This document shows, one piece after another, positions 5,721 through 48,909 of a stretch of 64,000 nucleotides of DNA (positions are counted from its first letter, which is position 1; the number at the start of each line of letters is the position of its first letter). The translations under genes and the position numbers were made by a program. The notes under the pieces are model-generated. The model searched no databases and was not told where the DNA came from. It saw only the letters and a list, made by a program, of their open reading frames with translations. Source of the DNA: an uncultured Candidatus Saccharibacteria bacterium (lineage in GTDB: Bacteria > Patescibacteriota > Minisyncoccia > Phycocordibacterales > UBA5272); the NCBI GenBank assembly GCA_964635125.1, contig CAZWMQ010000002.1, positions 47,591-111,590 on the forward strand, written 5' to 3'.

Positions 5721-5835
5721 ATTAATATTTTAACAGAAAATAAAGATTAAAAAATACTTGACAAAATATTCTTATAGTTAAAATCGAACTCTTAATAATC
5801 TCAATAAATATGCAAATATATGTTAAGATAGGTAA

Positions 5836-6927
5836 ATGAAAAAAGAGAAAATACAAATAATATCTCTCTCGGCTTCCCCAAAGTTTTTAGATTACAATTC
5901 TACTCAAATTAAAAACCTTCAAGATCAAGCTAAAAAAATAGAAAATCATATTTTAATAAATTTTCAAAAAGTTAAATACGAAGTCGAAAAAAAAGAAAAT
6001 ATTATTTTTATAAAAGTACCTAGAATAAAAACTTTATTTTATATATATAAAATAAAAAAAGAGATCAAAAATCATATAAACTCAAAAATAAAAACTATAA
6101 TCACTGCTGGTAATCCTTTTGATCTTGGTATCTTAGGGATCATATTTAAATTTATATTAAAATATCCACTTAATATCCAAATACATACGGATCTATATGC
6201 AAAAAATTTTATTAAAGCTAAAAAAAGACATTATTTATATTTTTTAATATCAAAAATGACATTACCGTTTGCCAACTCTATAAGAACTGTCTCAGAAAAT
6301 ACAAAAAATATATTAAAGAAAAAATATCCAAATAAATTGATTAAAAACATAATAGAAATAGCTGATTTCTCTAATATAAAAATAAATACAGAAAAAAATA
6401 AAGATGGACTTCTTTATTTATGCCCTTCTAGATATGATAATGGGAAAAATCTTGAAAATTTAATTTTAGCATTTATAGATTTCCATAAAAAATTTCCAGA
6501 CACTAAACTAAAAATTATAGGTGGAGGTATTTTAGAGAAAAAATTAAAAAAACTAATCTCAGAAAACTCTGCTAATAAATACATAGATTTACCCGGCTGG
6601 TCTATTGATATGCCAAATGAATACACAAGAGCAAACTATACTATTTTAACATCTCTTTTTGAAGGATATAATATGTCTGTCGTACAATCAATGTATTATG
6701 GTACTCCATTTTTAGCTACTCCATTCGGAGGTAGTACAAATCTAATTGACCATGATACGGGATTATTAGCTTATGGGTTTTCAAAAGAAAATATATATAA
6801 ACTATTAGTTAATTCTCATAAAAAAATCAATACTTTTAACACTAAAAAAATAAGAGAGAAAGTTGAAAATTTAACGAAAGAAAATATGGATATAGAATTA
6901 ATAAATATATGGAAAAATACAAATTAG
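5836..6927 (+). CDS. glycosyltransferase family 4
   Basis: 'KLKIIGGGILEKKLKKL...TSLFEGYNMSVVQSMYYGTPFLATPFGGSTNLIDHDTGLL'. Confidence 0.65.
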   Translation: MKKEKIQIISLSASPKFLDYNSTQIKNLQDQAKKIENHILINFQKVKYEVEKKENIIFIKVPRIKTLFYIYKIKKEIKNHINSKIKTIITAGNPFDLGILGIIFKFILKYPLNIQIHTDLYAKNFIKAKKRHYLYFLISKMTLPFANSIRTVSENTKNILKKKYPNKLIKNIIEIADFSNIKINTEKNKDGLLYLCPSRYDNGKNLENLILAFIDFHKKFPDTKLKIIGGGILEKKLKKLISENSANKYIDLPGWSIDMPNEYTRANYTILTSLFEGYNMSVVQSMYYGTPFLATPFGGSTNLIDHDTGLLAYGFSKENIYKLLVNSHKKINTFNTKKIREKVENLTKENMDIELINIWKNTN

Positions 6928-19878: not shown

Positions 19879-19995
19879 TCTGTTCTCCCGAATAGCTACT
19901 CTTGCTAATTAAAGCTACCATCGCTCTATGAAGTCTTCACGATCCAGTTCGGAATGAGATGGTGTGTTACCCTTCATCCAAATCAGGAGAACAGA
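19879..19995 (-). rRNA. rrf: 5S rRNA
   Basis: Reverse complement aligns with bacterial 5S ('CCGAACTGGATCGTGAAGAC', 'GATGGTAGC...GAGTAGC'). Helix I 'GTTCTCCTGA'/'TCGGGAGAAC'. Confidence 0.8.
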
Positions 19996-21695
19996 AAACT
20001 CAAAAGAGATTGGAGAGAGAAGCGGAGTCGAACCACTACCTTCTCATAAATTATTATTTCGTAGTTACTTTTCAGATGGTAACTCGGATAGAATTAATAA
20101 ACTTATGTGATGTCCTAACCGTTAGACGAGCTCTCTTCAATCTTTTGAGTATAAAATCCTATAATGATGTGAGAAGTTTTACTTCTCAATTCGAAAAACT
20201 AAATAAAAATCAAAATAAATTTCAATCAATAACTAGTCTTCCGAATTGAAAAGTAAAATATATAAAAATAATTAATGATAAACATATTTCCTAATAGGAT
20301 ATGGGTATTAGTAATCCTCAGCTGAATGCATTACTGCACTTACACTTAGACCCTATCAACGTAATCATCTCTTACGACCCTTATAGAATACTTATCTTGA
20401 AGTTGGCTTCGTTCTTAGATGCTTTCAGAACTTATCCATTCCCGACTTGGCTACTGGGCGATCCAGCTAGCGCTAGAGCCCACACACCAGAGGTCAGTTC
20501 ATCTCGGTCCTCTCGTACTAGAGATAAATCTTCTCAATATTCCAAACGCCTGCAGTAGATAGGAGACCAACCTGTCTCACGACGGTTTGAACCCAGCTCG
20601 CGTATCTTTTTAAATGGCGAACAGCCATACCCTTGGGAGCTTCTTCACCCCCAGGATAAGATGAGCCGACATCGAGGTGCCGAACTCCACCGTCGCTATG
20701 GACGCTTAGGTGGAACTAGCCTGTTATCCCCGTGGTAGCTTCTATCCGTTAATCTTCAACTGCATCTAATGCAAATTGTCGGTTCACTATGTTCTACTTT
20801 CGTATCTGCTCGACATGCCCGTCTTACAGTTAAGCCAGTTTATGCCATTACACTATCGGCACGGTTTCCATTCGCGCCTAACTGACCTTAATAAACCCCT
20901 CCGTTACTCTTTAGGAGGGTACCGCCCCAGTAAAACTCCCCACCAGATACTGTCTCTCAACGTTTTTTCCGTTGAGGTTAGTGTTTGCCAAGTTACAGAT
21001 GGCTATTTCACTGTCGACTCCATGACAACCGAAATCGTCACTTCAAAGTCTCACCACTATACTACGCAATAAATTAACAAACACAATACCAAGCTAGAGT
21101 AAAGCTCACGGGGTCTTTTCGTCTAACTGCAGGTAGGCGGCATCTTCACCGCCACTGTATTTTCACCGAGCTACTCCCTGAGACAGTTCCCCAGTCATTA
21201 CACCATTCGTGCACGTCTGAACTTACCAGACAAGGAACTTCGCTCAACTGTTCCTTTAAAAGTTGGACTCTATCTTCATCTTTCTTTTACAAGTTAAGAT
21301 GCGTACCGCTGGTCTCTAGTTAGGTACATTGACGCATAATATATTTCTATAAGTGCGGGTAGCTTTATAAATGGTTAATGAATTTAAAACTATTTCCTAA
21401 AACAATCACGACACTAATCTTATCGTCCCAATCATTTCAGATACAAATAATATTTATATCTGAAACCTTAGGACGATTATAGTTATCGCCGACATTGACG
21501 GGGGCTTATATCAGTCAGCCACATGGCAAATTCAAAGTTAGTCCAAAATAAATTTTAAACGCTTTAAATCCACCATGTGACCACCGATATTTGACCTTCC
21601 CGCATTGGTCAGGTGTCACCCCATATACATACTCTTACGAGTTCGCATGGAGCTGTGTTTTAGATAAACAGTTGCCAGAGAAACTTTCGCTGCGG

Positions 21696-22087
21696 CCCAC
21701 ACTATAAAGCTCTCTTTAAATCTTCAAAATCTAAAGAGAGAAAATAGGGTGCCGGTAAATTGGTACTACTCAATAATGGATCATACTGAACGTTACTCGT
21801 ATGATTAGGCTTTTTTTCTTCCGAACCCCAACTTCAAAGATTTCTTTTACAAGAAATAAATCCATTGTTTGTCGAACAAAAATGCTATTACTTTCAACAT
21901 GACTGTGATTGCATATTGAAAAACATTTCTGACGGAGGTGTTTCGCTTTCCTATCAACACCTCGTAGCGTTTACTAAAACTCTGCAGTTCTAGCTGATCA
22001 TTTAAGACCATTTCTCATTATTAACTAATCTCATACCAATTCCCGAGCAATACTTTCAAGCTCATAAAAAGAGCTTTATAGTGTGGG
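21696..22087 (-). repeat. 392-bp insertion in 23S flanked by perfect 18/19-bp inverted repeats
   Basis: 'CCCACACTATAAAGCTCTC' at 21696-21714 and 'AGAGCTTTATAGTGTGGG' at 22070-22087. Confidence 0.55.
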
Positions 22088-22691
22088 CAAGCCTTATTGC
22101 TAACTTACGGCTGCTTTTTTGCCTAGTTCCTTGGGGAGAAATCACTCGTTCGCCTTGGTCTACTCGACCTGAATACCTGTGTCGGTTTGCGGTACGGACT
22201 TATATAAATTTAAAGTATTGCGGATTTTGTGAATAATGTATCCTAGATGACTAGCTACATTATTCACAAAGCAATATCTACTATTCAGTAGATGTAGAAA
22301 CTTTTCTCGGCACAGTGCTCCTTTATCTTCACCGGTATTGCTACAAGCTTCACTTCATAACTCTCGGTATTCAAGAACTGATTTACATGCTCTTGCCAAT
22401 CATTACAAAGACCACAATCTGATAAGTGGCATAAAATACAACCATGCGTCATTCCATCACATTTATACAAGGTAAAGGAATATTAACCTTTTGTCCATCG
22501 CCTACGGCTCATCGCCATCGGCTTAGGCCCGACTAACTCTTCGCTGACAACCATTGCGAAGAAAACCTTATTCTTTCGGCGTGGGGGGATCTCACCCCCA
22601 TTGCGGTTACTTGTGCCAACATTCGTACTTCTACACGCTCCACGGCGGGTCACCCCTTCCGCTTCATCGCAGAGTAGAACACTCGTCTACC

Positions 22692-22836
22692 GATTGTAAT
22701 TTTCACAAGAAAGAGAAATAACTATTTACTAATTAGGGCGAAGGTCTGACTAATAAATTTATTAAAAAATAAATTTATTAATTCTGCTTCCAAACTATTA
22801 GTCATAATACTTATCTCCCTTGTGAAAATTACAATC
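22692..22836 (-). repeat. 145-bp intervening sequence in 23S flanked by perfect 18-bp inverted repeats (helix-45-type IVS)
   Basis: 'GATTGTAATTTTCACAAG' at 22692-22709 and 'CTTGTGAAAATTACAATC' at 22819-22836. AT-rich interior with a duplicated 12-bp palindrome 'AATAAATTTATT'. Lies ~1.2 kb from the 23S 5' end. Confidence 0.6.
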
Positions 22837-22911
22837 CCTAAACTTCGGTGATATGTTTGAGTCCCGATCATCTGTGGCGCAGAATCTCTCGATGGGTGAG
22901 CTGTTACGCTA

Positions 22912-22946
<35 letters not shown>

Positions 22947-23520
22947 CATTGTCAATGAAATTCCACCTCCTCACTTACACTTAACATATACTTAGGGACC
23001 TTAATTTTAGATCTGGGCTGTTTCCCTTTTGACCACCGGAGCTTCGCCCCCGGAGTCTTACTGCTAGACTATTAAACTTTGGTATTCGGAGTTTGATAGG
23101 TATTGCCGTATTTCTACTAGTCAAGACCTTCCAGTGCTCTACCCCCAAAGCGAACATCTAACGCTATTCCTATAAATATTTCGACGAGAACCAGCTATTA
23201 CCAAGTTCGATTAGCTTTTCACTCCAACCCACAAGTCATCCAAAAGAGTCGCACGACTTACTAGTTCGGGCCTCCACTTATCTTTCGACAAGCTTCGCCC
23301 TGCTCATGGGTAGCTCACCTGGCTTCGGGTCTTTATTATTCAACTATTATTTCGCGCTATTCACACTCGCTTTCGCTTATGACTCCATCACTTTATACGA
23401 CTTAGTCAGCTGAATAATAAAACTCGTTGGCTCATTCTTCAATAGGCACGCAGTCGAGGTGCAAGCACCTCTCCTACTCTTTGTAAACATATGGTTTCAG
23501 TTCTATTTCACTCCCCTCCC

Positions 23521-23564
<44 letters not shown>

Positions 23565-24454
23565 ACTCAAGGAATATTTAGCCTTACCGGTTAGTTCCGG
23601 CAGATTCACCCGAGCTATTCGTGTCTCGAGTTACTCAGGATAAGAGATAAAAAAGAGTTAAATATTTCGAATACGGGACTATCACCCTCTTTGGTGCTAC
23701 TTTCCAATAGCTTATACTATAAATAACTTTTGTAACTTTCCTAGATAATTCTACATCTCTTCCCTACAACCAACTTAGTATTACTACTAAGAATTTGGGC
23801 TTCTCTGTTTTCGCTCGCCGCTACTTGCAGAATAACATTGTTTTCTTTTCCTGTGGGTACTGAAATGTTTTACTTCCCCACGTACGCTTCTAAAGATATG
23901 CTCCCTAGATTCCAAGACTTTACTCTTGGAGAGTTTCCTCATTCAGATATCTTCGGATCGAAGGTTAAAAGGCACCTCCCCGAAGCTTATCGCAGCCTAA
24001 TCACGTCTTTCATCGCTTCCTTGAACCAAGGCATCCACCTTATGCTCTTATTTCCTATTAGGAAATATATTTACCATCTTTATTTTTAACACCGCTGTCA
24101 AAAATAAATATTATTTTTATACAGTGTCTATATTATTCTCATAATATAGACTTACCTTTATTTTCACATCTATATACATTGCCTGAAAAGACCCCAAGAT
24201 ATTTGGGATATCAAATTGTGCAATGCTATAGGATTCTATTGACAAATAACTTGTCTAAATTTTTGAAAATAAAAACCGCTTTTTAAGCGGCGACTAAAAA
24301 CACTTTTTAGAAGCTGCTTAATTTTTCTGTTTTAAATTCAACATATTTAGGTCTTTCAATATTAACATAATGGAAATAAAAATGCAAACCAATCTGATAT
24401 CTAATTGCTAGTATCTAGTTTCTAGTTAAAATAACCTTTCTAGATAACTATAGG

Positions 24455-26037: not shown

Positions 26038-29000
26038 TTAGTATACATTGTAAGTAGTTAACAAAGTACCAAGTTTAGCTGTTGAAGAAGCATAATTGGT
26101 TACTCCGTCAATCACATCAGACCATTTGAAATTGGCTGCTGCACCGACTGTTACATCGTATGTCTGTGAATTTGATGATCCGTTGACAATGTCTCCATAG
26201 ATATCAAAGTTTACAGATTGTCCAGCTCCAATTCTGTATCCAGAAGCGAAGGTTGTGCTAGTTGCAGAAGCTACTCCAGAAATTGTAGTAACATCTGTAC
26301 CATTAGCTTTAACTACTACATTGCTTGCTGATACTGAGAAAGGAAGAACGAACATTGTTACATCTCCATGAGAATCTGCGGCAACATTAATTGTTCCGAT
26401 CTTAACTCCAGTAGTTGTTCCAGAATTTACTGAAACTCCACTTGTAGTCTTCTTTACAGTAGGTAGAGAAGCTACTAAAGTCATAGTATTAGCGGCAACT
26501 GAAGGGGTAATTGTAGTCTGAGTTCCACCAGCAGTATATTTAACTGAAGTTAAAGTAATTGTGCTAGTTGATCCTGAATCTACACCTCCTTGATTAGTTT
26601 GAGTAACAGCTGAGTAAGTAATAGCTACTGGAATATTTAATCCTGAAGCACCTGAAGTAACTCCTAGATTAATTCCGTAGAAATTAGCTACACCGCTAAT
26701 TACATTAGCTGTAACACCATTGATAGTTAGAGATTGAACTCCGGTACCACCAACTGTAAATCCTAAGTCATTTAGAGTTGCATTACCATTAGTTGATACT
26801 ACGTTGTAAGTAGCTACAGCATTAACTGTAGATCCTCCAATTAAATATCGATTTCCAAGAGTAGAAGCAGTTACTAAAGTAGGAGTTCCAACTGAGACAG
26901 AAGCTGCTGTCATAGTAGGAGCAGTTGCTGATTGAGTATTAGTTACAGAAGAAACAGTTCCTCTGTAGCTTACAGTTGAAGAAGCAATAATAGTATATCC
27001 ATTAGTAATCTCAAGAGTATCTACCCAGACTTCAATAGTCTTAGTAGTTCCAGCAGGAACAGTGTAATTTACTGAGAAATTATTAGTTCCAGTTACTGGG
27101 ACAATAGTTTGTGAACCATCAGTAATTCTTAAGTTAGTATAATCTACTCCAGCTGAAGCAGTTCCACCTAAGATTACATTAATGTTAGTAACATTAATAG
27201 CCTCAGATGAACCAGCTTGTAGAGCAAATGATCCAATCTTAACTCCTGTTTGATTCTTAGAAATATTAGCTGCAGTAAATCCAGCAGTTGCTCCGTAAGC
27301 AACATTACCAGAATTAATAGACAAAGATTGTCCAGTAGCTGTAGGAACGGATATTGTGTTGTATGAATATTGTCCTTGAGCTAAGTTAGAGCTTGATGAA
27401 GCTACATCAACTCTAAGAGTACCTGAAGTAATATTTGCATTACCACTATTTACTAAGTCACCTTTAACTTCAACGACTGCTGAAGATCCAGCAGGAATAA
27501 TTAAGTTAGAACCTAAGTTGAAAGTAGTGTTAGATCCAAGAGTTAATTGAACTCCGGAAGAAACAGCTGCTCCATTGACATAGACAGTAACATTATTAAT
27601 CGCTGTAGTTGTAGGACTTAGAGCTACAGTAGCTGTAGCATTAAGGGTAAGATTTTGAACTTTCACATCTTCTCCATAAGCATAGAACTTATAAGAAGCT
27701 AAAGTTTGATTAACTGAGCCACCAACTACTGTTGAAGCAGCGAAGGCTGAGTTTTGTGAAATAGTTAAAGATCCACCACTAATAGTAATTGTTCCAGCTT
27801 GTCCAGATGAACCTGTGAAGGCAGCTGAAGACTTAGTAACAGTTACATTAGCTCCATATAATTGTGAATCTTGTAATGCTACATCTCCAGCATTCTCAAG
27901 AGTTACATAGAAATTTCTACTTGATCCCTTAACAATATCAGCTCTAACATCAAAAGTGTGAGAACCAGTATTAAGTGATAAAGGACTCATTGAGTAGAAA
28001 GTTACATAACCATTAGCTGAGAAAGCTGAGGCATTAGCAAATTGAACTCCATCTACATATAATTTAACATTAGCTAATGAATCTACCGGAGCAGATCCAA
28101 TCATTCGGAAAGTCATAGAACCTAGATTAACAGCTCTAGTTCCAACATTAAGTGCTGAAGACCAGACTGTCGCTCCAGTTACACCTGCATTCATAGAAGT
28201 AGAAGCAGGAGTGATTGTTCCGAAATCAGCTGTAGCTAAAGTAGCTGAAGCAATTGGAAGAGCAGGACCGTTTAATCCTGAAACCATTGCCATAGAGCTA
28301 CCCATAACTGTATAACCAGTTAAAGATACTCCAACTGATTGTCCTGATGAAGATCCAGCAATATCAGCTAGAACAGAGACTGTTCTTGAGCCAGATACTG
28401 CAAATATTCCAGAAGCATTGTTAAATGTGATTGTGCCGTCAGTTAAAACTGAAGCAGCATCAGTTAATCTAGCACCAGTCATAGCATCATATAAATATAC
28501 ATTAGATAATGTACTATTATTAGATACACCTAATCTAGATAACTTAACACTAACTACAGAACCATTACCTGTGAAGACAAAGTCAGCTAATTTAGCTCTA
28601 GCTGAACCTTGTACTAATACATTACTTGGTTGTACTGAAGAAAGTGAAACACTAACCGCTCCTGAAGTAGGATTAGTTGGGTTAGTAGGATTAGTTGGAT
28701 TGGTTGGACCAGAACAACTATTCATAGCTCCTCTTGATGAAGAACCAAAGAATCCTGTTCCTTGAGCTAATCCCCAAGGTGCTAATACTGTTGCAGCATT
28801 AGCATTTTGCCAAGCAATAACGGCAGCCTTAGTTAAGCCACCGAAATATGAAGTCTCCATTCCTGGAGATCCAGCACCACTTGCAGCAATTTGAAATCCT
28901 TTAGAGTTAAGAGCTTGTTGTAAAGCTTTAACATCTGCTCCAGAAGCTCCTAGAGAAAGATTTCTTGTGAATTGATAGCAAGCTGGAGCTGATTGAGCTG

Positions 29001-29073
29001 AAGCAAGCATTGCTCCAGCTAAAGCACCCGCTGAGATAGCAGCTAAAGCTGCTGTCTTTAATTTGAAATTCAT
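26038..29073 (-). CDS. S-layer-like large surface protein: signal peptide, peptidoglycan-binding domain, (PTN)4 linker and a long A/S/T/G/V/N-rich beta-repeat region
   Basis: Signal peptide 'MNFKLKTAALAAISAGALAGAMLASA'. PG_binding_1-like 'LSLGASGADVKALQQALNSKGFQIAASGAGSPGMETSYFGGLTKAAVIAWQ'. Codon usage differs from its neighbours (GC-richer third positions), consistent with very high expression. A leader hairpin and promoter lie upstream. Confidence 0.7.
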   Translation of the reverse strand: MNFKLKTAALAAISAGALAGAMLASAQSAPACYQFTRNLSLGASGADVKALQQALNSKGFQIAASGAGSPGMETSYFGGLTKAAVIAWQNANAATVLAPWGLAQGTGFFGSSSRGAMNSCSGPTNPTNPTNPTNPTSGAVSVSLSSVQPSNVLVQGSARAKLADFVFTGNGSVVSVKLSRLGVSNNSTLSNVYLYDAMTGARLTDAASVLTDGTITFNNASGIFAVSGSRTVSVLADIAGSSSGQSVGVSLTGYTVMGSSMAMVSGLNGPALPIASATLATADFGTITPASTSMNAGVTGATVWSSALNVGTRAVNLGSMTFRMIGSAPVDSLANVKLYVDGVQFANASAFSANGYVTFYSMSPLSLNTGSHTFDVRADIVKGSSRNFYVTLENAGDVALQDSQLYGANVTVTKSSAAFTGSSGQAGTITISGGSLTISQNSAFAASTVVGGSVNQTLASYKFYAYGEDVKVQNLTLNATATVALSPTTTAINNVTVYVNGAAVSSGVQLTLGSNTTFNLGSNLIIPAGSSAVVEVKGDLVNSGNANITSGTLRVDVASSSSNLAQGQYSYNTISVPTATGQSLSINSGNVAYGATAGFTAANISKNQTGVKIGSFALQAGSSEAINVTNINVILGGTASAGVDYTNLRITDGSQTIVPVTGTNNFSVNYTVPAGTTKTIEVWVDTLEITNGYTIIASSTVSYRGTVSSVTNTQSATAPTMTAASVSVGTPTLVTASTLGNRYLIGGSTVNAVATYNVVSTNGNATLNDLGFTVGGTGVQSLTINGVTANVISGVANFYGINLGVTSGASGLNIPVAITYSAVTQTNQGGVDSGSTSTITLTSVKYTAGGTQTTITPSVAANTMTLVASLPTVKKTTSGVSVNSGTTTGVKIGTINVAADSHGDVTMFVLPFSVSASNVVVKANGTDVTTISGVASATSTTFASGYRIGAGQSVNFDIYGDIVNGSSNSQTYDVTVGAAANFKWSDVIDGVTNYASSTAKLGTLLTTYNVY

Positions 29074-29490
29074 AAAATTTTTATAAAATTTATAATTTGT
29101 TTTGATCTTTTTATAGTGATCGAAGGATAAATATTTTCTTAAATGCTTTCGACAAGCAAAAATATTTAGTCCTCATGACTAAATCAATCGTCGTCGATTA
29201 ACTTATAAAAATTTCCGTAAAAAACTTTTACTTATTAATCTGCGATTGAATATATTACATTAATTAGGGTTAATTTAATTAATAATAAACTAATAATATT
29301 TTCTAATCTGTATCTATATTCTATTGCCAACGATCAATCTAGTTTTTTGGATACCTATAATAACTTATAAATGTATCTCAAATACCAGAGGACGCCCTAA
29401 CCAGAGACAGGTCGTCTAATAGATAATATAGCATAAAAATAAAGGAAATAAAATAATAGAAGTCTATATTGTGTATAAGTTAAGAAAGTT

Positions 29491-29530
29491 AAGACCGGGC
29501 GACCGCGAATGCGGTCGCCCGGTCTTATTC
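29491..29530 (-). terminator. rho-independent terminator (perfect 16-bp stem)
   Basis: 'AAGACCGGGCGACCGC-GAAT-GCGGTCGCCCGGTCTT'. Confidence 0.8.
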
Positions 29531-29547
29531 TTAAAACTTACAACTTA

Positions 29548-30372
29548 TTAGCTTATTAACTTGTAACGACTCCATCTTTTCTCCCCTATTTTCTCAATTT
29601 TTCCATCTTCTAAAAGATTATTTATCTCTCTTTGTAGAGTTTTTAAAGAACATCCGATAATTTTTTTAGAAATATCTTTAATAGAAACCTCTACTCCTCT
29701 ACTAAATACTCCTAAGATTTGCTCTTTACGATTTTGTCTATATCCTATATTTCTTTTATTTTTAGATTCACTTTTAGAATTGATTACTTTCTTAGTTGCC
29801 ACCTTAAAATTTGTCTTAATGTCTTTTACAAAACTAATGTCGTTTAGATTTTCTAAATGTCGTTTATCTGTTGAATCATTACTATGATATTGTTTATTAT
29901 TTTTACTATTCAAATTACGATTAGTTAAAACATCAAAAGATGTATTTGGGTTAGGAAAATTATTTTTAAAAGATTCTCTTTCTAAATTAAAAAAGAAATC
30001 TTCTTCAACTATACTTATATCTTGTTTATCAAATCTAAATTGCTCTTCTATTAAAACATGCTCTACAGATCTTAATGCTTGTATAACAATCTCGCAATTC
30101 ATAGTAGAAATTAAATTAGAGTTCTTAGCTAAATTTATATATAAAATTAATAATGAAACATAATCTAAAGAATCTTTATAAAGTGAAAATAAATCTTTTG
30201 AGTTATTATAGGCGATTAAATTAATCTCCTTCAAAAGCAAGTTGCCTGTACTTCTTAATTCTAGTTTAAGGTCCTCTGTGTCGTTAAGAAATTGAGATAT
30301 TAAATAAACGGCGGTAACTACCTTTTCTGTTTTCTTAGCTAATAATAAATTGAGCTCCGAATTATTTTTCAT
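29548..30372 (-). CDS. hypothetical protein with a C-terminal winged-helix DNA-binding-like domain
   Basis: C-terminal 'GYRQNRKEQILGVFSRGVEVSIKDISKKIIGCSLKTLQREINNLLEDGKIEKIGEKRWSRY'. Confidence 0.35.
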   Translation of the reverse strand: MKNNSELNLLLAKKTEKVVTAVYLISQFLNDTEDLKLELRSTGNLLLKEINLIAYNNSKDLFSLYKDSLDYVSLLILYINLAKNSNLISTMNCEIVIQALRSVEHVLIEEQFRFDKQDISIVEEDFFFNLERESFKNNFPNPNTSFDVLTNRNLNSKNNKQYHSNDSTDKRHLENLNDISFVKDIKTNFKVATKKVINSKSESKNKRNIGYRQNRKEQILGVFSRGVEVSIKDISKKIIGCSLKTLQREINNLLEDGKIEKIGEKRWSRYKLIS

Positions 30373-30454
30373 ATTTACTCAATAAAATACTATACTTTTA
30401 TTTAAAATAATGCAAGTTATCTAAGGATTCCAAAAATTACCTTTATACTATAAA

Positions 30455-30640
30455 AAGTAAGATGTCTTTTATAATTAATTTATTTACGTCTTTTATAAGT
30501 TACCAAGTTTATTGTGTCCTTTATTTTTTAAGATGCCTTATTCTTGTCGTTTATAATAATAAAATATGTCCTTTATTTTCTAAAAGACAACAGCGACTTG
30601 TCTTTTATAATTATATTTTGTTTATCTTCAACTTTGAATA
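30455..30640. promoter_or_regulatory. six iteron-like direct repeats TGTC(T/C)TTTATAA at ~25-33 bp spacing, in a divergent intergenic region
   Basis: Copies begin at ~30459, 30486, 30515, 30545, 30567 and 30600. Confidence 0.5.
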
Positions 30641-30732
30641 AAGTATTGCTATTCAAAAATAAGTATTTTATTCAAAGAATACTTAAGTGTAATTTAATTA
30701 TGTTATAATTTTTATAACTTAATTATTTAAGT

Positions 30733-33192
30733 GTGATTTTTATGGCTAAAACTAAAAGTATAGATACAAATGACTACGAAGCTCCATCTCTACCTTTTTC
30801 TAAAAAACCTAGAAATAGAGCGGTTAATGATGGGATTATATCTATAGTACTATTTCTAATTGGTATATTCATCTTACTAGCTGCTTTTGATGCTGCTGGC
30901 AATGCTGGAAAAATATTCTTTGGGCTTTTAGCGAAAATATTTGGGTTCATTGCTTACTTTGTATGGATAGTATTTTTTATATTAGGGTATAGATACTGAG
31001 TAAAAGATAAATATAAATATAATTTTGGTACATTATCTATCTTAAATGTAATCCTAATGATTTTTTCTCTAACTACTTTTACGGCCTCTCTAAATATTAA
31101 TTTTTCAGGAATAATTGGTAAAATAATAAATCATTTTCTTAAAAATGCTTTTGGAAATATTTTACCTAGTATTATTTCTTTAGCAGTGTTTTTGATTTCT
31201 TTTATCATTCTTTATGAAGACAAACCAAAGCTAAAAATTAAAACTGAAAAAGTAGATAAATTTAATAACTATGTATCAAACACTGCGACAATAGCTAGTA
31301 AAACTTCTAAAAATACTTTCATTAGAATTTGGAAATTTATACTTTCTTTATTTACTTTTAAGAAAATAAATAATCGAGTTGATTTGGAAGAGGATATAGT
31401 TGATGGAGACTTTAAAAACAATCACAGTCTACATTCTGAATTAATGTCAAATATTTATCAGGAAAAAGATTCTTCAACCACTTCAATATCTAATGCGGAT
31501 TATCAAATCCAAAATGTAAATTCTACTTCAGCAGATATTAATAAAGTCAATCTTAAAAAAGAATCTCCACAAGAGTTAGCTAAATTTGAAGAAAAAGTTG
31601 CGAAAAGTATTGAAGCTGAAACCAAGCCTGTAACAATAGAGGAAAAATTTACTCCGCCTGATCTTATTCTTTTAAATGAAGATACCGGAAAGTCTTCAGC
31701 TGGAGATTCTAAATTCAAAATGAATGTCATCCAAAAAGTCTTAAATCAATTTAATATTCCGGTAGAAATGGGAGAAGTAACTGTTGGACCATCTGTAACT
31801 CAATTTACTCTTAAACCAGCTCAGGGAGTTAATGTTAGAAAAATTCTGACCTTAAAAGATAACTTACAAATGGCTTTATCAGCAACCAATATGCACATTG
31901 AAGCTCCAATTCCTGGGAAACCTTTTATTGGAGTAGAAATACCAAATGAAAAGAAAACTCGCCTTGGATTAAGAAGTTTGCTTGGGATAGAAGAATTCCA
32001 AAATGGTCCAGCCCTATCCTTAGCAATTGGAAAAGATATAATTGGAAAACCAATCATCTCCAATCTAGCTAAGATGCCGCATCTCCTAGTCGCTGGAGCG
32101 ACTGGTACTGGAAAGTCAGTGACTTTACACAATCTAATCCTGTCTCTTTTATATAAAAATTCTCCATATGATCTCAAATTGATTATTCTAGATCCAAAAA
32201 GAGTCGAGTTTAATGCTTACAACTCTCTACCGCATCTTTATACTCCTATAATTAAAGATGCTAAAACTGCTATTAAAACTCTAAATTGGGCTATACAAGA
32301 AATGGATAGAAGATACGATGTACTTGGTGAATATGGTATGCCTAATTTAATAGATTACAATCAAAAAGTATTTAACCCTGCCTATGAAAAAGCCAAAAAG
32401 AAATCAGATGATGGTGACATAGTCACTAATCTTCCTCCTAAAATGCCTTATGTAGTGATTGTCTTTGATGAGTTTAATGACTTTATGCTTTCTTATCCTA
32501 AAGAAATAACTCCGATTATTACTTCTTTAACTCAAAAAGCTAGAGCAGCTGGAATTCACTTGATATTAACTACTCAAAGACCAGATGTTAAAGTTATTAC
32601 CGGAACAATTAAGGCTAATATTCCTTCTCGTATTGCTTTAAAAACTACTTCTCAAATAGATTCTCGAACTATTTTAGATCAAGCTGGAGCGGAAGATTTA
32701 CTAGGTAATGGAGATATGCTTTATATGAATGGTTCAAAAATTACCAGAGTCCAAGCTCCATTTGTTTCTTCTGAAGAAATAACTTCAGTAATTAAAGACA
32801 TTAAGAAAAAATATGATGATTTCTTACCTGATAATATAGATTTAAAAAGTATTAAAACTAATTCTTTAACTAATGGCTATAAAGAATTAGATAATCAAAG
32901 AGATAGTGAGGAGGAGCCGACTGAAGATGAAGATTATATGTCAGCTAGAGATTATGTTATCTCAACTGGTAAAGCTTCCACTAGTGCCTTACAAACCGCT
33001 TTCCGTTGAGGATATAATAAAGCCGCTCGGATTATGAATGATTTAGAGAAATATGGAGTTATAAGTTCTAACACTAATGGTAGATATAGAGAAGTATTGT
33101 TTGGTAAAAATTCTGAAAGTGAAGTCGAAAAATTAGAAGAAGAATTAGCTAATATGGAAAATACTAATAATAATGAGAGCGGTGACAGTAAT
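30733..33192 (+). CDS. ftsK: DNA translocase FtsK (N-terminal 4-TM domain + motor + gamma domain). Merges ORFs through 2 in-frame TGA
   Basis: TGA at 30997-30999 links the 88-aa membrane ORF to the 650-aa ATPase ORF. TGA at 33007-33009 links on to the 'GYNKAARIMNDLEKYGVIS' gamma-domain tail. Walker A 'VAGATGTGKSV'. Confidence 0.8.
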
Positions 33193-33203
33193 TAAAAATA
33201 AAA

Positions 33204-33608
33204 ATGAGAAATAATATTAATAAATTTGATAAAAAAGATTATATTAAAATCAAAAATAATTTTAGATTAAAACTTAAAAAGTTATTTTTTTTTGGATTTT
33301 TATCATTAATAATTATTTATTTAATTTTTAGTCTCTATAATTATATAATTGGTCCATTAATAATCATAAATTCTCCAAAACCCTATCAAATAATAAATAC
33401 TAAGACTTTTGAATTGATAGGACAAGTAAAGAATTCTAAAAGTATTTACATTAACGGTCGAGAAATACAAATAACTGAAAATGGAAATTTTGAAGAAACT
33501 CAAATTACTAAATCTCCTTACACTATTATTACAATCAAAGCTGTAGATAGATATGGAAAAGCTACTCAAAAAATCTTAACTTATGGAGTTAGTCAAGATA
33601 TTAATTAA
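33204..33608 (+). CDS. hypothetical membrane-anchored protein
   Basis: ORF with an N-terminal TM helix. Confidence 0.3.
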   Translation: MRNNINKFDKKDYIKIKNNFRLKLKKLFFFGFLSLIIIYLIFSLYNYIIGPLIIINSPKPYQIINTKTFELIGQVKNSKSIYINGREIQITENGNFEETQITKSPYTIITIKAVDRYGKATQKILTYGVSQDIN

Positions 33609-33659
33609 AAAATACAATGTTCAGAATATGCTATAATTTAATTATAAAAAAATAAAATT

Positions 33660-34754
33660 ATGGCAGTAAAAAAGAAAGTAGCAAAAGCTAAGAAAACAAT
33701 CGGAGAGAAAATTGAAGGTAAAAAAGTTAATGCAGATGAGTTATTAAAAGAAATACAACAAAAATTCGGTGAAGGAGCTATTATGAAGCTTGGAGAAACC
33801 CCAAAAGTTGATATTGGAGTAATCGGAACTGGATCAATTGGATTAGATTATGCCTTAGGTGTTGGTGGACTTCCTCGAGGAAGAATTGTTGAAATCTACG
33901 GACCAGAGTCCTCTGGAAAAACTACTTTGACACTTCATGTAATTGCTGAGGCACAGAAAATGGGAGGAACTTGTGCTTTTATTGATGCTGAACATGCTAT
34001 GGATCCAGAATATGCTAAGAAGCTTGGCATCAATATTAATGAATTATTAATTTCTCAACCAGATAATGGTGAGCAAGCTCTCGATATTGCAGAAACTTTA
34101 GTTAGATCTGGAAAAATTGATGTCTTAATTATTGATTCAGTTGCTGCCTTAACTCCACAAGCAGAAATCGAAGGAGATATGTCCCAAGCTCATGTTGGTA
34201 GACAAGCAAGACTCATGTCCCAAGCTTTAAGAAAATTAACTTCTATTGCCCACAAGTCAAAGACAGTAATTATATTTATCAATCAGATAAGAATGCAAAT
34301 TGGAATAATGTTCGGTAATCCTGAAACAACTCCAGGAGGAAAGGCATTAAAGTTTTATGCTTCGGTCCGCTTAGACATTCGTAAGATCGCTCAGATTAAG
34401 AAAGGAGACGAGGTGCTTGGGGCTAGAACTCGAGTAAAAGTAGTTAAAAATAAAGTGGCTGCTCCATTTAAACAAACTGAGTTCGATATTATGTATGGAG
34501 AAGGTATTTCTCATGAAGGAGAGTTACTAGCTCTTGGAGAGAAATTTAAGATAATAAATAAAAGCGGATCTAGTTATACTTTTGGAGAGGAAAAGTTAGG
34601 ACGAGGTTATGATGCTGCTAGAAGCTATCTAAAAGAAAATCCTAAAGTAACTAAAGAAATTGAAAAACAAATCAGAAAAGCACTGGTTAGTGGTGGCTTA
34701 GAATTCACTCCCGAAAAACACGAAACTGAAGAAGACGAAGCTCCGGAAGAATAA
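33660..34754 (+). CDS. recA: recombinase RecA
   Basis: '[13 protein letters not shown]', 'IIDSVAAL' and '[36 protein letters not shown]'. Confidence 0.95.
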
Positions 34755-35192: not shown

Positions 35193-36326
35193 ATGACTAA
35201 TAATAAAGATATAGTATTAAATAAAAATACTGAATTAATATTGAATAATATTAAAAATATTAAAGATGGAGACACTATAGAAGGTCCAGTCTTAGCAATT
35301 ACTAAGAATGCTGTTTATGTTGATCTTGGTAATAATGGTACTGGAAGAATATATGGAATTGAGTATATTCATGCTAAAGACTTAATTAAAAGAATTAATA
35401 TTGGAGACTTGATCTCAGCTAAAGTACTTATGGCTTTAGATAAAGACGGATATATTGATTTATCACTACAAGAAGCAAGATTCGCTTTGATCTGGACTGA
35501 AGCTGAACAAGCTTTGAAAGAAAAAAGAAATATGAGTCTAGTTGTCAAAGATGCTAATAAAGGAGGATTAATCTTAGAGTGAAATAATTTAAATGGATTT
35601 TTACCTTCGTCTCAATTGAAAGGAGAAAATTATCCTAAAGTTACCGATGGAAACAAAGATCAAATCTTATCTGAACTTAAAAAATTAATTGGAGAAAGAG
35701 TTTCTGTGAATATTATTGCGGTAATTCCAAAAGAAGGTAAATTAATCTTCTCTGAAGCTAGTGATGACTTAGCTAAAGCTGCAAAAGGAGAAAAAAATGA
35801 AAAAGTAAAAGAAGCTACTAAGAATAATAAGACTCTGGCAAAAATTATCTCTAACTACAATCTAGGAGATAAGTTAGATGGAGTTGTAACTGGTATAGTT
35901 GACTTTGGAATCTTTGTAAAAATTGATAATGAGGTAGAAGGATTAATCCATAAAAGTGAAATTGATTGGGGCTTAGTTGAGAATACTAAAGACTATGCTA
36001 AGATTGGTGATAATGTTAAAGTTGAAGTAATTGAGATTAAAGATGGTAAGATTTCTCTATCAATGAAGAAATTAAAACCTAATCCATGATTAAATGCTTC
36101 TAAGAAGTACAAGAAAGGTGATGCTGTCGATGGAGTGGTAATCAGATTTAATAAGCATGGGGCTCTAGTCTCGGTTGAAGAAGGGGTTGCTGGGTTAATT
36201 CATATCTCTGATTTTGAAAATGAAGCTAAGATGAAAGAAGCTCTATCCCTCGGTAAAGTTTATAAATTTGAGATTAATTTATTCGATGGTAAAGATGAGA
36301 AAATGACTTTAACTTTAAAGAAGTAA
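35193..36326 (+). CDS. rpsA: 30S ribosomal protein S1 (4 S1 domains). Merges 3 track ORFs through 2 in-frame TGA
   Basis: TGA at 35580-82 gives 'GLILE-W-NNLNGFLPSSQL'. TGA at 36087-89 gives 'KLKPNP-W-LNASKKYKKGDAVDGVV'. Both TGA sit on the conserved S1 Trp positions. Confidence 0.8.
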
Positions 36327-39151: not shown

Positions 39152-39898
39152 ATGCAAAATCTCAAAAGAGACTTCTTGAAAAGACTCAATTCTCTTAAAG
39201 AAGAGAAGGCTAATACTTATCTTTCTGTAAAAGGTCTTTCTAAAAATGATCTAAAGTTAATCTCTAAAGATGAGGAGAAGTTAATGAATTTGTGGAGGGA
39301 GACTCCTGAGGAATTATGTTCTCCCATAATTAAAAGAATGAGGATCAACAACAAAGAAAAATTAATTAAATATGCCAAAAATGAGAAGAAGTTGATGAAT
39401 TTGTTGAGGAATACTACTGAAGAACTCCGCCCTCCTATAATTAAAACCATTCTTAAATTGATCTCTAAAGATGAGGAAAAGTTGATGAATTTGTGGAGGA
39501 AGACTCCTAACGAACTCCGTCCTCCTATAATTAAGACCGTTCTTAAATTGATCTCTAAAGATGAGGAGAAGTTAATGAATTTGTGGAGGGAGACTCCTAA
39601 CGAACTCTGCCCTCCTATAATTAAAACCATTCTTAAATTGATCTCTAAAGATGAGGAGAAGTTGATGAATTTGTGGAGGAATACCTCTGACGAACTCTGC
39701 CCTCCTATAATTAAGGCCATTCTTAAATTGATCTCTAAAGATGAGGAGAAGTTAATGAATTTGTGGGGGGAGACTCCTAACGAACTCTGCCCTCCTATCA
39801 CTGAGAAGATTGTGGAATTATTAATGAGCTATGATGATAATAAATTCAAAATGGCCGTTGAAAAAATTGATGCGAATATTTTAAAAGCTATTGTCTAA
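39152..39898 (+). CDS. tandem-repeat protein with six ~30-aa repeats 'LKLISKDEEKLMNLWRETPNELCPPIIKTI' (90-bp DNA repeats); unknown function
   Basis: Near-identical 90-bp repeats at 39230-39790. Own promoter-like TTGACA at ~39083 and a terminator at 39913-39944. Confidence 0.6.
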   Translation: MQNLKRDFLKRLNSLKEEKANTYLSVKGLSKNDLKLISKDEEKLMNLWRETPEELCSPIIKRMRINNKEKLIKYAKNEKKLMNLLRNTTEELRPPIIKTILKLISKDEEKLMNLWRKTPNELRPPIIKTVLKLISKDEEKLMNLWRETPNELCPPIIKTILKLISKDEEKLMNLWRNTSDELCPPIIKAILKLISKDEEKLMNLWGETPNELCPPITEKIVELLMSYDDNKFKMAVEKIDANILKAIV

Positions 39899-47223: not shown

Positions 47224-47682
47224 TTAGACCAGAATTGATACTCCTTTTAATTTATTAAAATTATCTTTATTAAAATTAGACCCTCTTATATATTCAACTA
47301 CTTCTTTCACTCCAAATCTATAAGCTAAAATTACATAATCTGCTCCCTCTCTATATAACAATCTTGCTTGTTTCTCTTGATAAGCAATGCTTATAAATAT
47401 TTTATTTTTAACTTCTTCATTAATCTGTCTTTTATAAAAATGTAAAAGATTTAAATTGACTTCAAAATATGGAATGGTGGAAATAATAATCTTACTTCTT
47501 AAAATATGGTTATCTTCTAAGAAAGCAATGTTCTCAGCATCACCAACTATAGCTACCCCTCCATCTTGATTAGCTTTTTCAACTGCCTTATTATCAATAT
47601 CGATTATTAAAGTGTGGTAATTATTTTCTAATGATAATTTTAGAAAATCCGAGCTGACTTTATCGTAACCAAATATCACCAT
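47224..47682 (-). CDS. TrkA-N (RCK) NAD-binding regulatory domain protein
   Basis: 'MVIFGYDKVSSDFLKLS...VAIVGDAENIAFLE' Rossmann-like. Adjacent to the antiporter gene. Confidence 0.5.
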   Translation of the reverse strand: MVIFGYDKVSSDFLKLSLENNYHTLIIDIDNKAVEKANQDGGVAIVGDAENIAFLEDNHILRSKIIISTIPYFEVNLNLLHFYKRQINEEVKNKIFISIAYQEKQARLLYREGADYVILAYRFGVKEVVEYIRGSNFNKDNFNKLKGVSILV

Positions 47683-47685
47683 ATC

Positions 47686-48909
47686 TCACTCCACGCCCTC
47701 TTCATTGAAGAATTCTTTTTTAATTTTTCTAATTTCTAATAATTTAAGAAATGGCTTAATAAATTTATAAATCCTCTCACTATATAACAATAAATAAGAT
47801 GAAAAGCAAATTGAAACCAACATTATAATTAAGACTACTGCAAAAACTTGATTGTTAATAAAATTATAATTTTTAGCAATCACTAAAACCACTAATGAAA
47901 ATTCTGAGACTTGTCCCATCGATAACCCTGTATAGAAACTAGTCCTAGTTCGATAACCTAATAAATTCATAATCATAAAAAGAATAATTGGATGAAAAAT
48001 AATCACAAATATACTTAGAACTATAATTAAATTCCCTGAACCACTTAAACTGAAAAACTGGGCTTGGAACCCTAACAATATAAAAAATATTATAATGAAG
48101 AAATCTCGAATTGGTTTAAATCTTGAAGCAATATCTTTAGCGAAATTTAAATTCGACAAAATTATTCCAGCCAGTAAGGCCCCAATCTCAAGTGAAAATC
48201 CAAACACTTCAAATAGATAGGCATATAGAAATGAAAATGACAAAGAAAATAACAAAAGCAATTCTTGAGATCGTGAAAATAATTTCGACATCCTTGGTAA
48301 TATCCATTTACTTAATACTATATAAATTACGATTAAAACAATTATCTTAATTCCAAAACTTTTTAGTAGAGACAAGGTTCCGTCTCCACCAATAGCGGAA
48401 ATATGCTTAATTGATAAAATAATCAATAAGATTGCCGCAAAAAAGTCCTGAACTAATAAGACACCAAGCGACATCTTAGCATATAACCTCTCAATATCTC
48501 CTTTATCAGTGATGATTTTTAAAACAATAATAGTCGAAGATAAAGTTATGGCTGAGGACACTAACAAAGAAGTAGTCAAATTAAAATTAAATCCAAAATA
48601 TATAATAATAAATCCAATCACTGTAGTAATAATAATCTGAGACAATCCTAATAATAAACTCTTACCACCTTCTTCTTTAATCGTCTTTGGATTTAAATTT
48701 AAACCAATAATAAATAATAAAGCCACAATTCCAATCTTAGAAAATAATTCTAAGTTCGTAGTGTCAGTCATTAAATTAAGAAAATACGGCCCAATTAATA
48801 TTCCAACTAAGATATAACCCAATACTAATGGTAATCTAAAATAATTCACAATTAAAGCGATAATACAAGTAAAAGTTAGTAAAAAAGCTAAATTAGCAAA
48901 AATATCCAT
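47686..48909 (-). CDS. CPA2-family monovalent cation:proton antiporter (KefB-like)
   Basis: About 12 TM helices with 'LGYILVGILIGPYFLNL' and 'EIGALLAGIILS'. Confidence 0.6.
   Translation of the reverse strand: MDIFANLAFLLTFTCIIALIVNYFRLPLVLGYILVGILIGPYFLNLMTDTTNLELFSKIGIVALLFIIGLNLNPKTIKEEGGKSLLLGLSQIIITTVIGFIIIYFGFNFNLTTSLLVSSAITLSSTIIVLKIITDKGDIERLYAKMSLGVLLVQDFFAAILLIILSIKHISAIGGDGTLSLLKSFGIKIIVLIVIYIVLSKWILPRMSKLFSRSQELLLLFSLSFSFLYAYLFEVFGFSLEIGALLAGIILSNLNFAKDIASRFKPIRDFFIIIFFILLGFQAQFFSLSGSGNLIIVLSIFVIIFHPIILFMIMNLLGYRTRTSFYTGLSMGQVSEFSLVVLVIAKNYNFINNQVFAVVLIIMLVSICFSSYLLLYSERIYKFIKPFLKLLEIRKIKKEFFNEEGVE

Follow-up and report, generated by a model that had tools for sequence, protein, structure and literature searches.

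The DNA analysed here (hereafter the window) is a stretch of 64,000 nucleotides from an uncultured Candidatus Saccharibacteria bacterium (contig CAZWMQ010000002.1, positions 47,591 to 111,590), in which a gene for a 274-residue winged helix-turn-helix (wHTH) protein (29548-30372, minus strand) and the ftsK gene (30742-33195, plus strand) point away from each other across a spacer of 369 bp and 19% GC. The spacer carries an array of short repeats, which we call boxes and which share the form (T)GTC[T/C/G]TTTA(T)(A). Six are direct copies on the plus strand, (T/C)GTC[T/C/G]TTTAT(A/T)(A/T), and one is inverted. In order along the window they are box 1 (30463-30474, TGTCTTTTATAA), box 2 (30487-30498, CGTCTTTTATAA), box 3 (30515-30526, TGTCCTTTATTT), box 4 (30545-30556, TGTCGTTTATAA), box 5 (30567-30578, TGTCCTTTATTT), the inverted box 6 on the minus strand (30578-30589, TGTCTTTTAGAA), which stands tail-to-tail with box 5, and box 7 (30599-30610, TGTCTTTTATAA). 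The direct boxes follow one another at start-to-start distances of 24, 28, 30, 22 and 32 bp, and box 3 opens a duplicated two-box unit of 52-54 bp (repeat families D4 and D5). A sequence-only reading of this DNA had described six direct repeats, and we confirmed their positions and found them clustered well above shuffle expectation; the details of its motif had to be revised, since one copy begins with C, the variable base may also be G, two copies end in TTT, and a seventh copy is inverted.

The pattern GTCNTTTATWW matches exactly at 9 places in the 64 kb against 1.95 expected, and 6 of the 9 fall within the 150 bp of the array. Counted on both strands, the core GTCNTTTA occurs seven times in the spacer, compared with 0.09 on average and never more than 2 in dinucleotide-preserving shuffles of the same DNA (n = 5,000), and the remaining 10.7 kb of intergenic DNA in the window holds a single box. 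These counts show that the array is not the common AT-rich background that the sequence-only reading had raised as a possibility. A lone perfect box (TGTCTTTTATAA, 47426-47437) inside the gene for a 561-residue membrane protein (47224-48909, minus strand) has no cluster around it and is probably a chance occurrence.

Conservation of the boxes in orthologous loci

Eight orthologues were fetched by exact-protein look-up, with the motif ignored (L003, L005, L007, L008, L009, L130, L131 and L132); their identity is 28-54%, and they include a Campbellbacteria (L008) and a Taylorbacteria (L009) member. All eight loci keep the layout recA - small gene - ftsK <-> wHTH -> large peptidoglycan (PG)-binding protein, and across these different lineages synteny takes in ftsK, recA, efp, S6-SSB-S18 and L10-L12. 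The sequence-only reading had considered the arrangement unusual for a division or recombination operon; it is instead the rule in the clade. Every one of the eight has a box upstream of the wHTH gene, with six to eight copies in close relatives and two to six in distant ones, at spacings of 12-32 bp and in mixed orientation. The flanks of the core are shared as well: T occupies position -1 in 33 of the 36 boxes upstream and in 32 of the 35 within genes, and the core is followed by T and then by A. The boxes are real, clustered and conserved across the Parcubacteria/Paceibacteria class (Minisyncoccia).

In a three-way alignment of spacers the conserved islands are the boxes and two promoter-like elements, both of which we take from this conservation as putative promoters. 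The first, for the wHTH gene (30387-30415, minus strand), consists of TTGCAT (30415-30410), a 17-nt spacer and TAGTAT (30392-30387); the second is an extended -10 of the ftsK operon (TGTTATAAT, 30701-30709, plus strand). Both are conserved in L003 and L005. The array begins about 50 bp upstream of the former, and its nearest box lies about 95 bp upstream of the latter. A promoter scan was uninformative at such AT content (17 sites against 12.4 expected). Among the orthologues, the wHTH gene of L130 has boxes between its -35 and -10 elements and on its ATG, and in L003, L007, L008 and L009 a box abuts the wHTH start codon. Such placement of boxes on start codons and in promoter spacers is typical of an autorepressor. 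The boxes of distant orthologues keep close to the wHTH gene, at 100-250 bp from ftsK.

Several other features of the spacer can be set beside the array. Tandem Repeats Finder (TRF) did not detect the boxes and reported only a 20-bp repeat of 2.2 copies at 30636-30681. That repeat belongs to an imperfect palindrome with a 20-bp tandem at 30632-30681 (CTTTGAATAAAGTA ... TATTTTATTCAAAG; TRF unit GAATAAGTATTGCTATTCAAA), just 5' of the ftsK promoter, which is not conserved in L003 or L005. An Rfam scan of the spacer for non-coding RNA gave nothing at the gathering score and chance-level matches only at E up to 1. Two small open reading frames (ORFs; 30462-30641 and 30544-30708) were treated as AT-rich artefacts, the conserved islands of the spacer being boxes and promoter elements only.

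The boxes do not stop at the spacer. The sequence-only reading had missed three co-oriented boxes inside the wHTH coding sequence, which occupy 29820-29869 in its linker-coding part and use two reading frames: TGTCTTTTACAA at 29820 (coding strand VKDI), TGTCGTTTAGAT at 29838 (LNDI) and TGTCGTTTATCT at 29858 (DKRH), all on the plus strand. Every orthologue carries 2-6 boxes within its own wHTH coding sequence, and in seven of the eight at least one of them falls in linker codons; the two boxes of L131 sit in the codons of the N-domain and of the wHTH domain. On the coding strand the box reads TAAA[G/C/A]GACA, which is framed either as x-K/N-D-x or as H-K-G followed by H or Q, and the use of two reading frames makes these boxes hard to explain by selection on the peptide. 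When synonymous codons were shuffled in six genes (2,000 shuffles), 8.5±2.3 boxes were obtained with a maximum of 16, compared with 26 observed. Intragenic boxes are thus under selection at the level of DNA.

A candidate binder with an unusual architecture

The candidate binder of the boxes is the product of the wHTH gene itself. Its 274 residues comprise a four-helix bundle like that of Avd and the 23S-IVP proteins (residues 4-111, nt 30040-30363), a disordered linker of about 90 residues (residues 112-204, nt 29761-30039) and a C-terminal winged helix of DeoR type (residues 205-272, approximately nt 29557-29760) with the recognition helix KTLQREINNLLED (residues 243-255). An AlphaFold2 model built on an alignment of 90 sequences has a mean predicted local distance difference test (pLDDT) score of 77.6, with the bundle at 4-111 mostly above 90 and the wHTH domain at 205-272, and HTH_DeoR was detected in 74 of the 90 homologues, always at the C-terminus. 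Pfam and NCBIfam hold no family for the whole protein, and the scans against them did not list a DeoRC effector domain. DeoR regulators, in contrast, have an N-terminal HTH_DeoR and a C-terminal DeoRC, so that the 274-residue protein has only the type of DNA-binding domain in common with them.

Foldseek supports the folds of the model, its match list including chains A-E of 2gsc and of 2rld, and the N-domain is a four-helix bundle as in PF05635. Avd is a homopentamer. By analogy with the Avd/23S-IVP fold, and with chains A-E in the matched crystals, the N-domain may be homopentameric too. A sequence search of the PDB returned only noise (armadillo repeats), and a look-up of the protein encoded in the window itself yielded no entry. 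In a profile search of 1.84 billion representatives, 2,421 clusters were recovered at E <= 1e-30, all of similar length; the family is therefore very large, with 2,400 or more clusters at 50% identity, and has no name in Pfam or NCBIfam. Its named homologues are Patescibacteria of Parcubacteria/Paceibacteria type. At L007 (473-1911) a diversity-generating retroelement (DGR), with bAvd and a reverse transcriptase, adjoins recA, and the N-domain of the regulator shares the Avd fold.

The recognition helix, S-x-K-T-I/L-Q-R-E/D-L, is nearly invariant, with K244, Q247 and R248 fully so, and this matches the invariant core of the box. Where helix and box do vary, they do so together. In proteins with Glu in the helix (S-E-K-T), position 4 of the box is C (90) or T (44), and G in 3 of 138; in those with Ile or Leu at the same residue, G stands at position 4 in 14 of 37. 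The Ile/Leu cases are the window, L003 and L005 and, independently, L046, which comes from a genome of 41% GC. As the shift goes towards G, AT pressure cannot explain it.

Boxes elsewhere in related genomes

We also scanned one genome per species, 185,579 species in all, for three boxes lying a short distance apart and obtained at least 120 matches. About 30 of the 120 matches listed are wHTH-ftsK loci, and in many of these the three boxes are the intragenic ones; the wHTH-ftsK locus of L010, a genome of 60% GC, is among them. The Patescibacteria in the list bear Parcubacteria-type or unresolved names (Campbell-, Nomura-, Taylor-, Yonath-, Wolfe- and Vogelbacteria and Paceibacterota), several are named as Saccharibacteria and one as Elulimicrobiales. 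Among these listed Patescibacteria the box and the protein family have matching distributions, which counts in favour of the wHTH protein as the binder.

Intergenic arrays of the same box also occur at other genes: upstream of a gene for a small membrane protein and tuf (L049, L112, L030), upstream of rpsO-NYN-pnp (L090), near tRNA genes and yraN (L033, L090, L117) and upstream of genes for secreted proteins (L112, L030). At 16 places in about 12 genomes, boxes are paired with a perfect TTATCCACA. The pairing takes the form of a recurrent composite module in which an inverted box, TTATCCACA as a perfect DnaA-box sequence, and three direct boxes come together, with TATAAT inside the last direct box. 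In related Patescibacteria this module precedes tuf, rpsO-pnp and genes for secreted proteins (L049:3995-4095; L112:4033-4100, 5786-5870 and 6558-6660; L030:602-690; L090:4348-4545; L073:4070-4135).

Some 25 of the matches listed lie inside cca, the gene for the CCA-adding enzyme, where the peptide KGH..YKGQEDIKDKVIR is encoded across three boxes at a fixed spacing of 17 + 24 bp (L013, L015, L016, L027, L032-L034, L040, L045, L056, L062, L065, L067, L068, L074, L079, L081, L088, L092, L109, L117, L122 and L127). In these genes the box-forming codons are constant and nearby synonymous sites vary, a pattern for which the scan itself selected. We at first took cca as a second regulatory locus and then set this aside, because the genes had been selected by the scan and three cca genes reached for other reasons hold 7, 0 and 0 boxes. 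The cca boxes may reflect regulation or a coincidence.

Probable binding of the array and rival explanations

The largest and most conserved clusters of boxes stand at and inside the wHTH gene in all nine loci that were retrieved without the motif, and the wHTH protein is the sole DNA-binding protein of the conserved neighbourhood. The box has been conserved along with the gene pair, boxes overlap promoters and start codons, and the recognition helix covaries with the box. On this evidence it is likely that the adjacent 274-residue protein binds the array as a multivalent operator and autoregulates its own gene, in agreement with the sequence-only reading, which had proposed that the repeats are an array of sites for a multimeric transcription factor, with the adjacent wHTH protein as the obvious candidate. 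That reading had added control of the ftsK-recA operon. Such control is plausible, as the control region is shared, but it is not established, because the boxes of distant orthologues stay near the wHTH gene.

Several observations weigh against this assignment. The binding itself is something we infer. The arrays of the same box at other promoters of related genomes (tuf, rpsO-pnp, tRNA/yraN and secreted-protein genes), often with TTATCCACA, mean that another global factor could own the box, with the wHTH gene as one of its targets. The covariation of helix and box comes from just two independent lineages and is therefore suggestive, not proof. In the window neither core promoter is overlapped by any box, so that regulation there could be of either sign; the boxes occupy positions typical of activators or architectural proteins. 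Taken alone, the window's three intragenic boxes do not reach significance (P = 0.17), and their meaning comes from conservation in the orthologues. As to the pentamer, what suggests it is similarity of fold, and the match of the PF05635 profile is marginal (3 of 90 members at E ~0.04, under the curated cut-off).

If the 274-residue protein does bind the array, the following mechanism can be proposed. Each C-terminal winged helix of DeoR type would read one box of about 11 bp, (W)TGTC[C/T/G]TTTAT(A), while the N-terminal Avd-like bundle would oligomerise, perhaps into a pentamer by analogy with Avd and the 23S-IVP proteins. The DNA-binding domains would then be carried on disordered tethers some 90 residues long, so that clusters of boxes could be bound by avidity, and the tethers would tolerate the irregular spacing (12-32 bp) and the mixed orientation. 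Loose spacing, mixed orientation and clusters of about 4-10 boxes are what a multivalent, tethered protein on an oligomeric hub might be expected to use, though the pentamer and avidity parts of this model, being drawn from analogy, are weaker than the claim of binding and autoregulation. Occupancy of the upstream array and of the cluster in the linker codons would feed back on transcription of the wHTH gene, and most likely negatively, as deep-branching orthologues have boxes between the -35 and -10 elements and over the start codon. In the lineage of the window the array would have spread over the whole shared control region and would probably also modulate the ftsK-recA promoter. A more ambitious proposal, which we regard as doubtful, is that the protein is a class-wide master regulator of these ultra-small bacteria, in which a pentameric Avd-like hub with five tethered winged helices reads loose clusters of the 11-bp box and coordinates its own level, ftsK-recA and translation genes (tuf, rpsO-pnp, tRNA), with part of the operator in its own linker codons. 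It would often act beside the DnaA box TTATCCACA, and this would provide a link to the cell cycle.

Among other explanations, the box might belong to an unlinked global protein, a nucleoid-associated or growth-rate regulator possibly acting with DnaA, and the wHTH gene might be no more than a member of its regulon. The arrays upstream of tuf, rpsO-NYN-pnp, tRNA/yraN and secreted-protein genes, and the 16 places where boxes stand beside a perfect TTATCCACA, are what such an owner would lead one to expect. Autoregulation is common among global regulators, however, so further targets are no argument against the wHTH protein, and an unlinked owner would have to accommodate the concentration of the biggest and best-conserved clusters at and inside the wHTH gene in 9 of 9 loci, the covariation of the recognition-helix residue with box position 4 and a conserved neighbourhood with no other DNA-binding protein. 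We therefore regard it as unlikely. We think it very unlikely that the array is a centromere-like or chromosome-organising site, comparable to parC/ParR, sopC or parS inside spo0J, where the protein would cover repeats in one orientation over about 1 kb and be functionally tied to FtsK. Co-oriented boxes do extend over about 800 bp of spacer and gene body, the linkage to ftsK is conserved and the predicted architecture of the protein is multivalent; yet the conserved neighbourhood, which has the repeat array, has no ParA/ParM-type gene, distant orthologues keep just 2-3 boxes, on the promoter, and the arrays at tuf, rpsO and tRNA promoters resemble transcription control. LexA/SOS-type control of recA was considered as well and rejected, as the 274-residue protein has no Peptidase_S24 domain and the boxes are mainly direct repeats and not a palindrome.

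The sequence-only reading had named a plasmid-like iteron origin as the other possibility, and we weighed this together with a chromosomal oriC, in either case with the wHTH protein as a Rep-like initiator repressing its own gene. Direct repeats with an inverted copy beside the gene of a DNA-binding protein do recall iteron replicons, the cumulative GC skew is lowest at 30-32 kb and the genes on either side of the spacer point away from it. The flip in skew appears to be local, however, and to follow gene orientation: at 44-46 kb, precisely where the genes revert in orientation, the skew becomes negative once more, a per-gene regression gave a strong orientation term (0.113) with genes beyond 45 kb resembling those to the left of the array, and in L008, L009, L130 and L131 the ftsK-recA block is an island of 4-5 kb amid oppositely oriented genes. 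No dnaA- or dnaN-like product was seen when the ORF translations of the window were read by eye, neither gene was called within ±3.5 to ±10 kb, as contigs allow, at the eight orthologous loci, and no DnaA signature was found among the ORFs of loci L001-L129. The spacer of the window has no DnaA box (TTATCCACA-like) at <=1 mismatch, and in about 27 orthologous spacers, 12.5 kb in total, 5 DnaA boxes with one mismatch were counted against ~4.4 expected, which is no enrichment. Pfam and NCBIfam list no Rep_3 or other initiator, the model being a four-helix bundle with a single wHTH domain, and a core of about 11 bp at irregular spacings of 22-32 bp differs from iterons of ~17-22 bp phased at ~22 bp. 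The same boxes, moreover, occur at several loci per genome, at other promoters and inside coding sequences, and the locus is chromosomal and syntenic in eight loci, not plasmid-borne or mobile. We accordingly give hardly any weight to an origin. Least of all do we credit a functionless array thrown up by chance or by recent tandem duplication, to which we assign practically no weight: the low GC of the spacer and the duplicated 52-54-bp two-box unit would suit it, but seven boxes stand against 0.09 in the shuffles, and orthologous spacers still carry the box at 28-54% protein identity, as do genomes whose GC content reaches 60% (L010).

Genomic context and genetic code

An intrinsic terminator with a 17-bp stem (29490-29527, minus strand) lies directly 3' of the wHTH gene, which is therefore a monocistronic unit. 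On the other side of the spacer, ftsK, a gene for 134 residues (33204-33608) and recA (33660-34754) form a divergent plus-strand operon (30742-34754), separated by gaps of 8 and 51 bp, that may be a second target of the array. The flanking gene calls of the sequence-only reading were correct in the main, except that ftsK is to be read as one gene that continues through in-frame TGA codons at 30997 and 33007; the wHTH gene itself contains no in-frame TGA. The gamma domain of FtsK runs on past the second of these (33007-33009), TGA aligns with Trp (TGG) of the orthologues at the four positions tested, and two more in-frame TGA sites occur in the S1 gene (35193-36326). With TGA taken as sense, all open frames of >=100 codons stop at TAA or TAG. 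The window thus reads as using a table-4-like code in which UGA is Trp, and the alignment with Trp rules out table 25, the Gracilibacteria code in which TGA is Gly. This agrees with the gTranslate preprint (May 2026), in which UGA-to-Trp lineages of Patescibacteria are reported for the first time, from the class Minisyncoccia. No tRNA-Trp gene was found in the 64-kb window.

The GC content of the window ranges from 24 to 42%. A 23S rRNA gene (20289-24061) about 850 nt longer than the Rfam model, its extra length suggesting an insertion or intron, is followed by a 5S gene (19883-19990), and no 16S rRNA gene was found in the window. A 1011-residue PG_binding_1 protein is encoded at 26038-29073 by DNA of higher GC than most of the window, in two 2-kb bins of GC 0.37 and 0.33 (most other bins have 0.24-0.33), and the third-position GC skew of its gene is opposite to that of its neighbours; homologues of this protein come after the wHTH gene in nearly all orthologous loci. 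At 39152-39898 an ORF of 248 residues contains about five repeats of some 30 residues (LISKDEEKLMNLWRETPNELCPPIIKT...).

Significance and comparison with known systems

Gene regulation in the Candidate Phyla Radiation (CPR) is almost unstudied, its members being uncultured or epibionts and their regulators without names. A search of the literature on the box sequence, on Patescibacteria regulators and on ftsK, recA and winged-helix proteins of the CPR found no description of this system. The locus pairs a very widespread, unnamed protein family with an 11-bp box kept invariant throughout a class, a pairing that can be tested in vitro. The candidate regulon comprises the gene itself, ftsK-recA and translation machinery, and the covariation yields a prediction of specificity, namely that replacing the recognition-helix Glu with Leu or Ile should relax box position 4. 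Operator sites in linker codons amount to dual coding, and may be of interest for how disordered regions host cis-elements.

By analogy, the array appears to act as an autoregulated multi-site operator, for which MraZ, BldC and Fis are the nearest analogues, although it belongs to none of these systems. MraZ is a small autoregulated regulator that binds as a higher oligomer to short direct repeats at the promoter of the dcw (division and cell-wall) cluster. The likeness lies in short direct repeats in the control region of a division operon beside a regulator that is probably autoregulated; the differences are a protein of 274 residues without the MraZ/SpoVT-AbrB domain, another box, a divergent regulator gene and boxes within coding sequence. 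Fis of E. coli is an autoregulated global regulator with upstream arrays of sites at stable-RNA and tuf promoters, and a cluster of sites at the regulator's own gene, with arrays at tuf, rpsO and tRNA promoters in related genomes, recalls it. Fis, however, has an unrelated fold, the present box is far more specific, and the wider regulon is seen only in the other genomes, not in the window. Avd, a pentamer that binds nucleic acid and reverse transcriptase, is a DGR accessory protein and, like the 23S-IVP proteins of PF05635, has a single domain, whereas the bundle here is fused to a linker and a wHTH domain and its sequence similarity is marginal.

As far as the account in PMC5859096 goes, BldC, a MerR-like protein of Streptomyces, forms cooperative multimers on variable numbers of direct repeats, and the two systems share short direct-repeat arrays, a copy number that varies from promoter to promoter and, on the mechanism proposed here, the joint action of several DNA-binding domains. 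BldC is a single domain of 68 residues that polymerises head-to-tail, whereas the present protein is predicted to have a separate oligomerisation domain and tethers, and its boxes are loosely spaced and of mixed orientation. Iteron plasmids (RepA, RepE, pi) resemble the locus in having direct and inverted repeats beside a winged-helix gene and in likely autoregulation; they differ in their Rep_3/WH1-WH2 proteins, DnaA boxes and 22-bp phasing, whereas the array lies at a chromosomal housekeeping locus and its like recurs at many loci. What is known, then, is the transcription-factor operator array as such; what is new is the unusual architecture of the protein and the placing of operator sites in the regulator's own linker codons.

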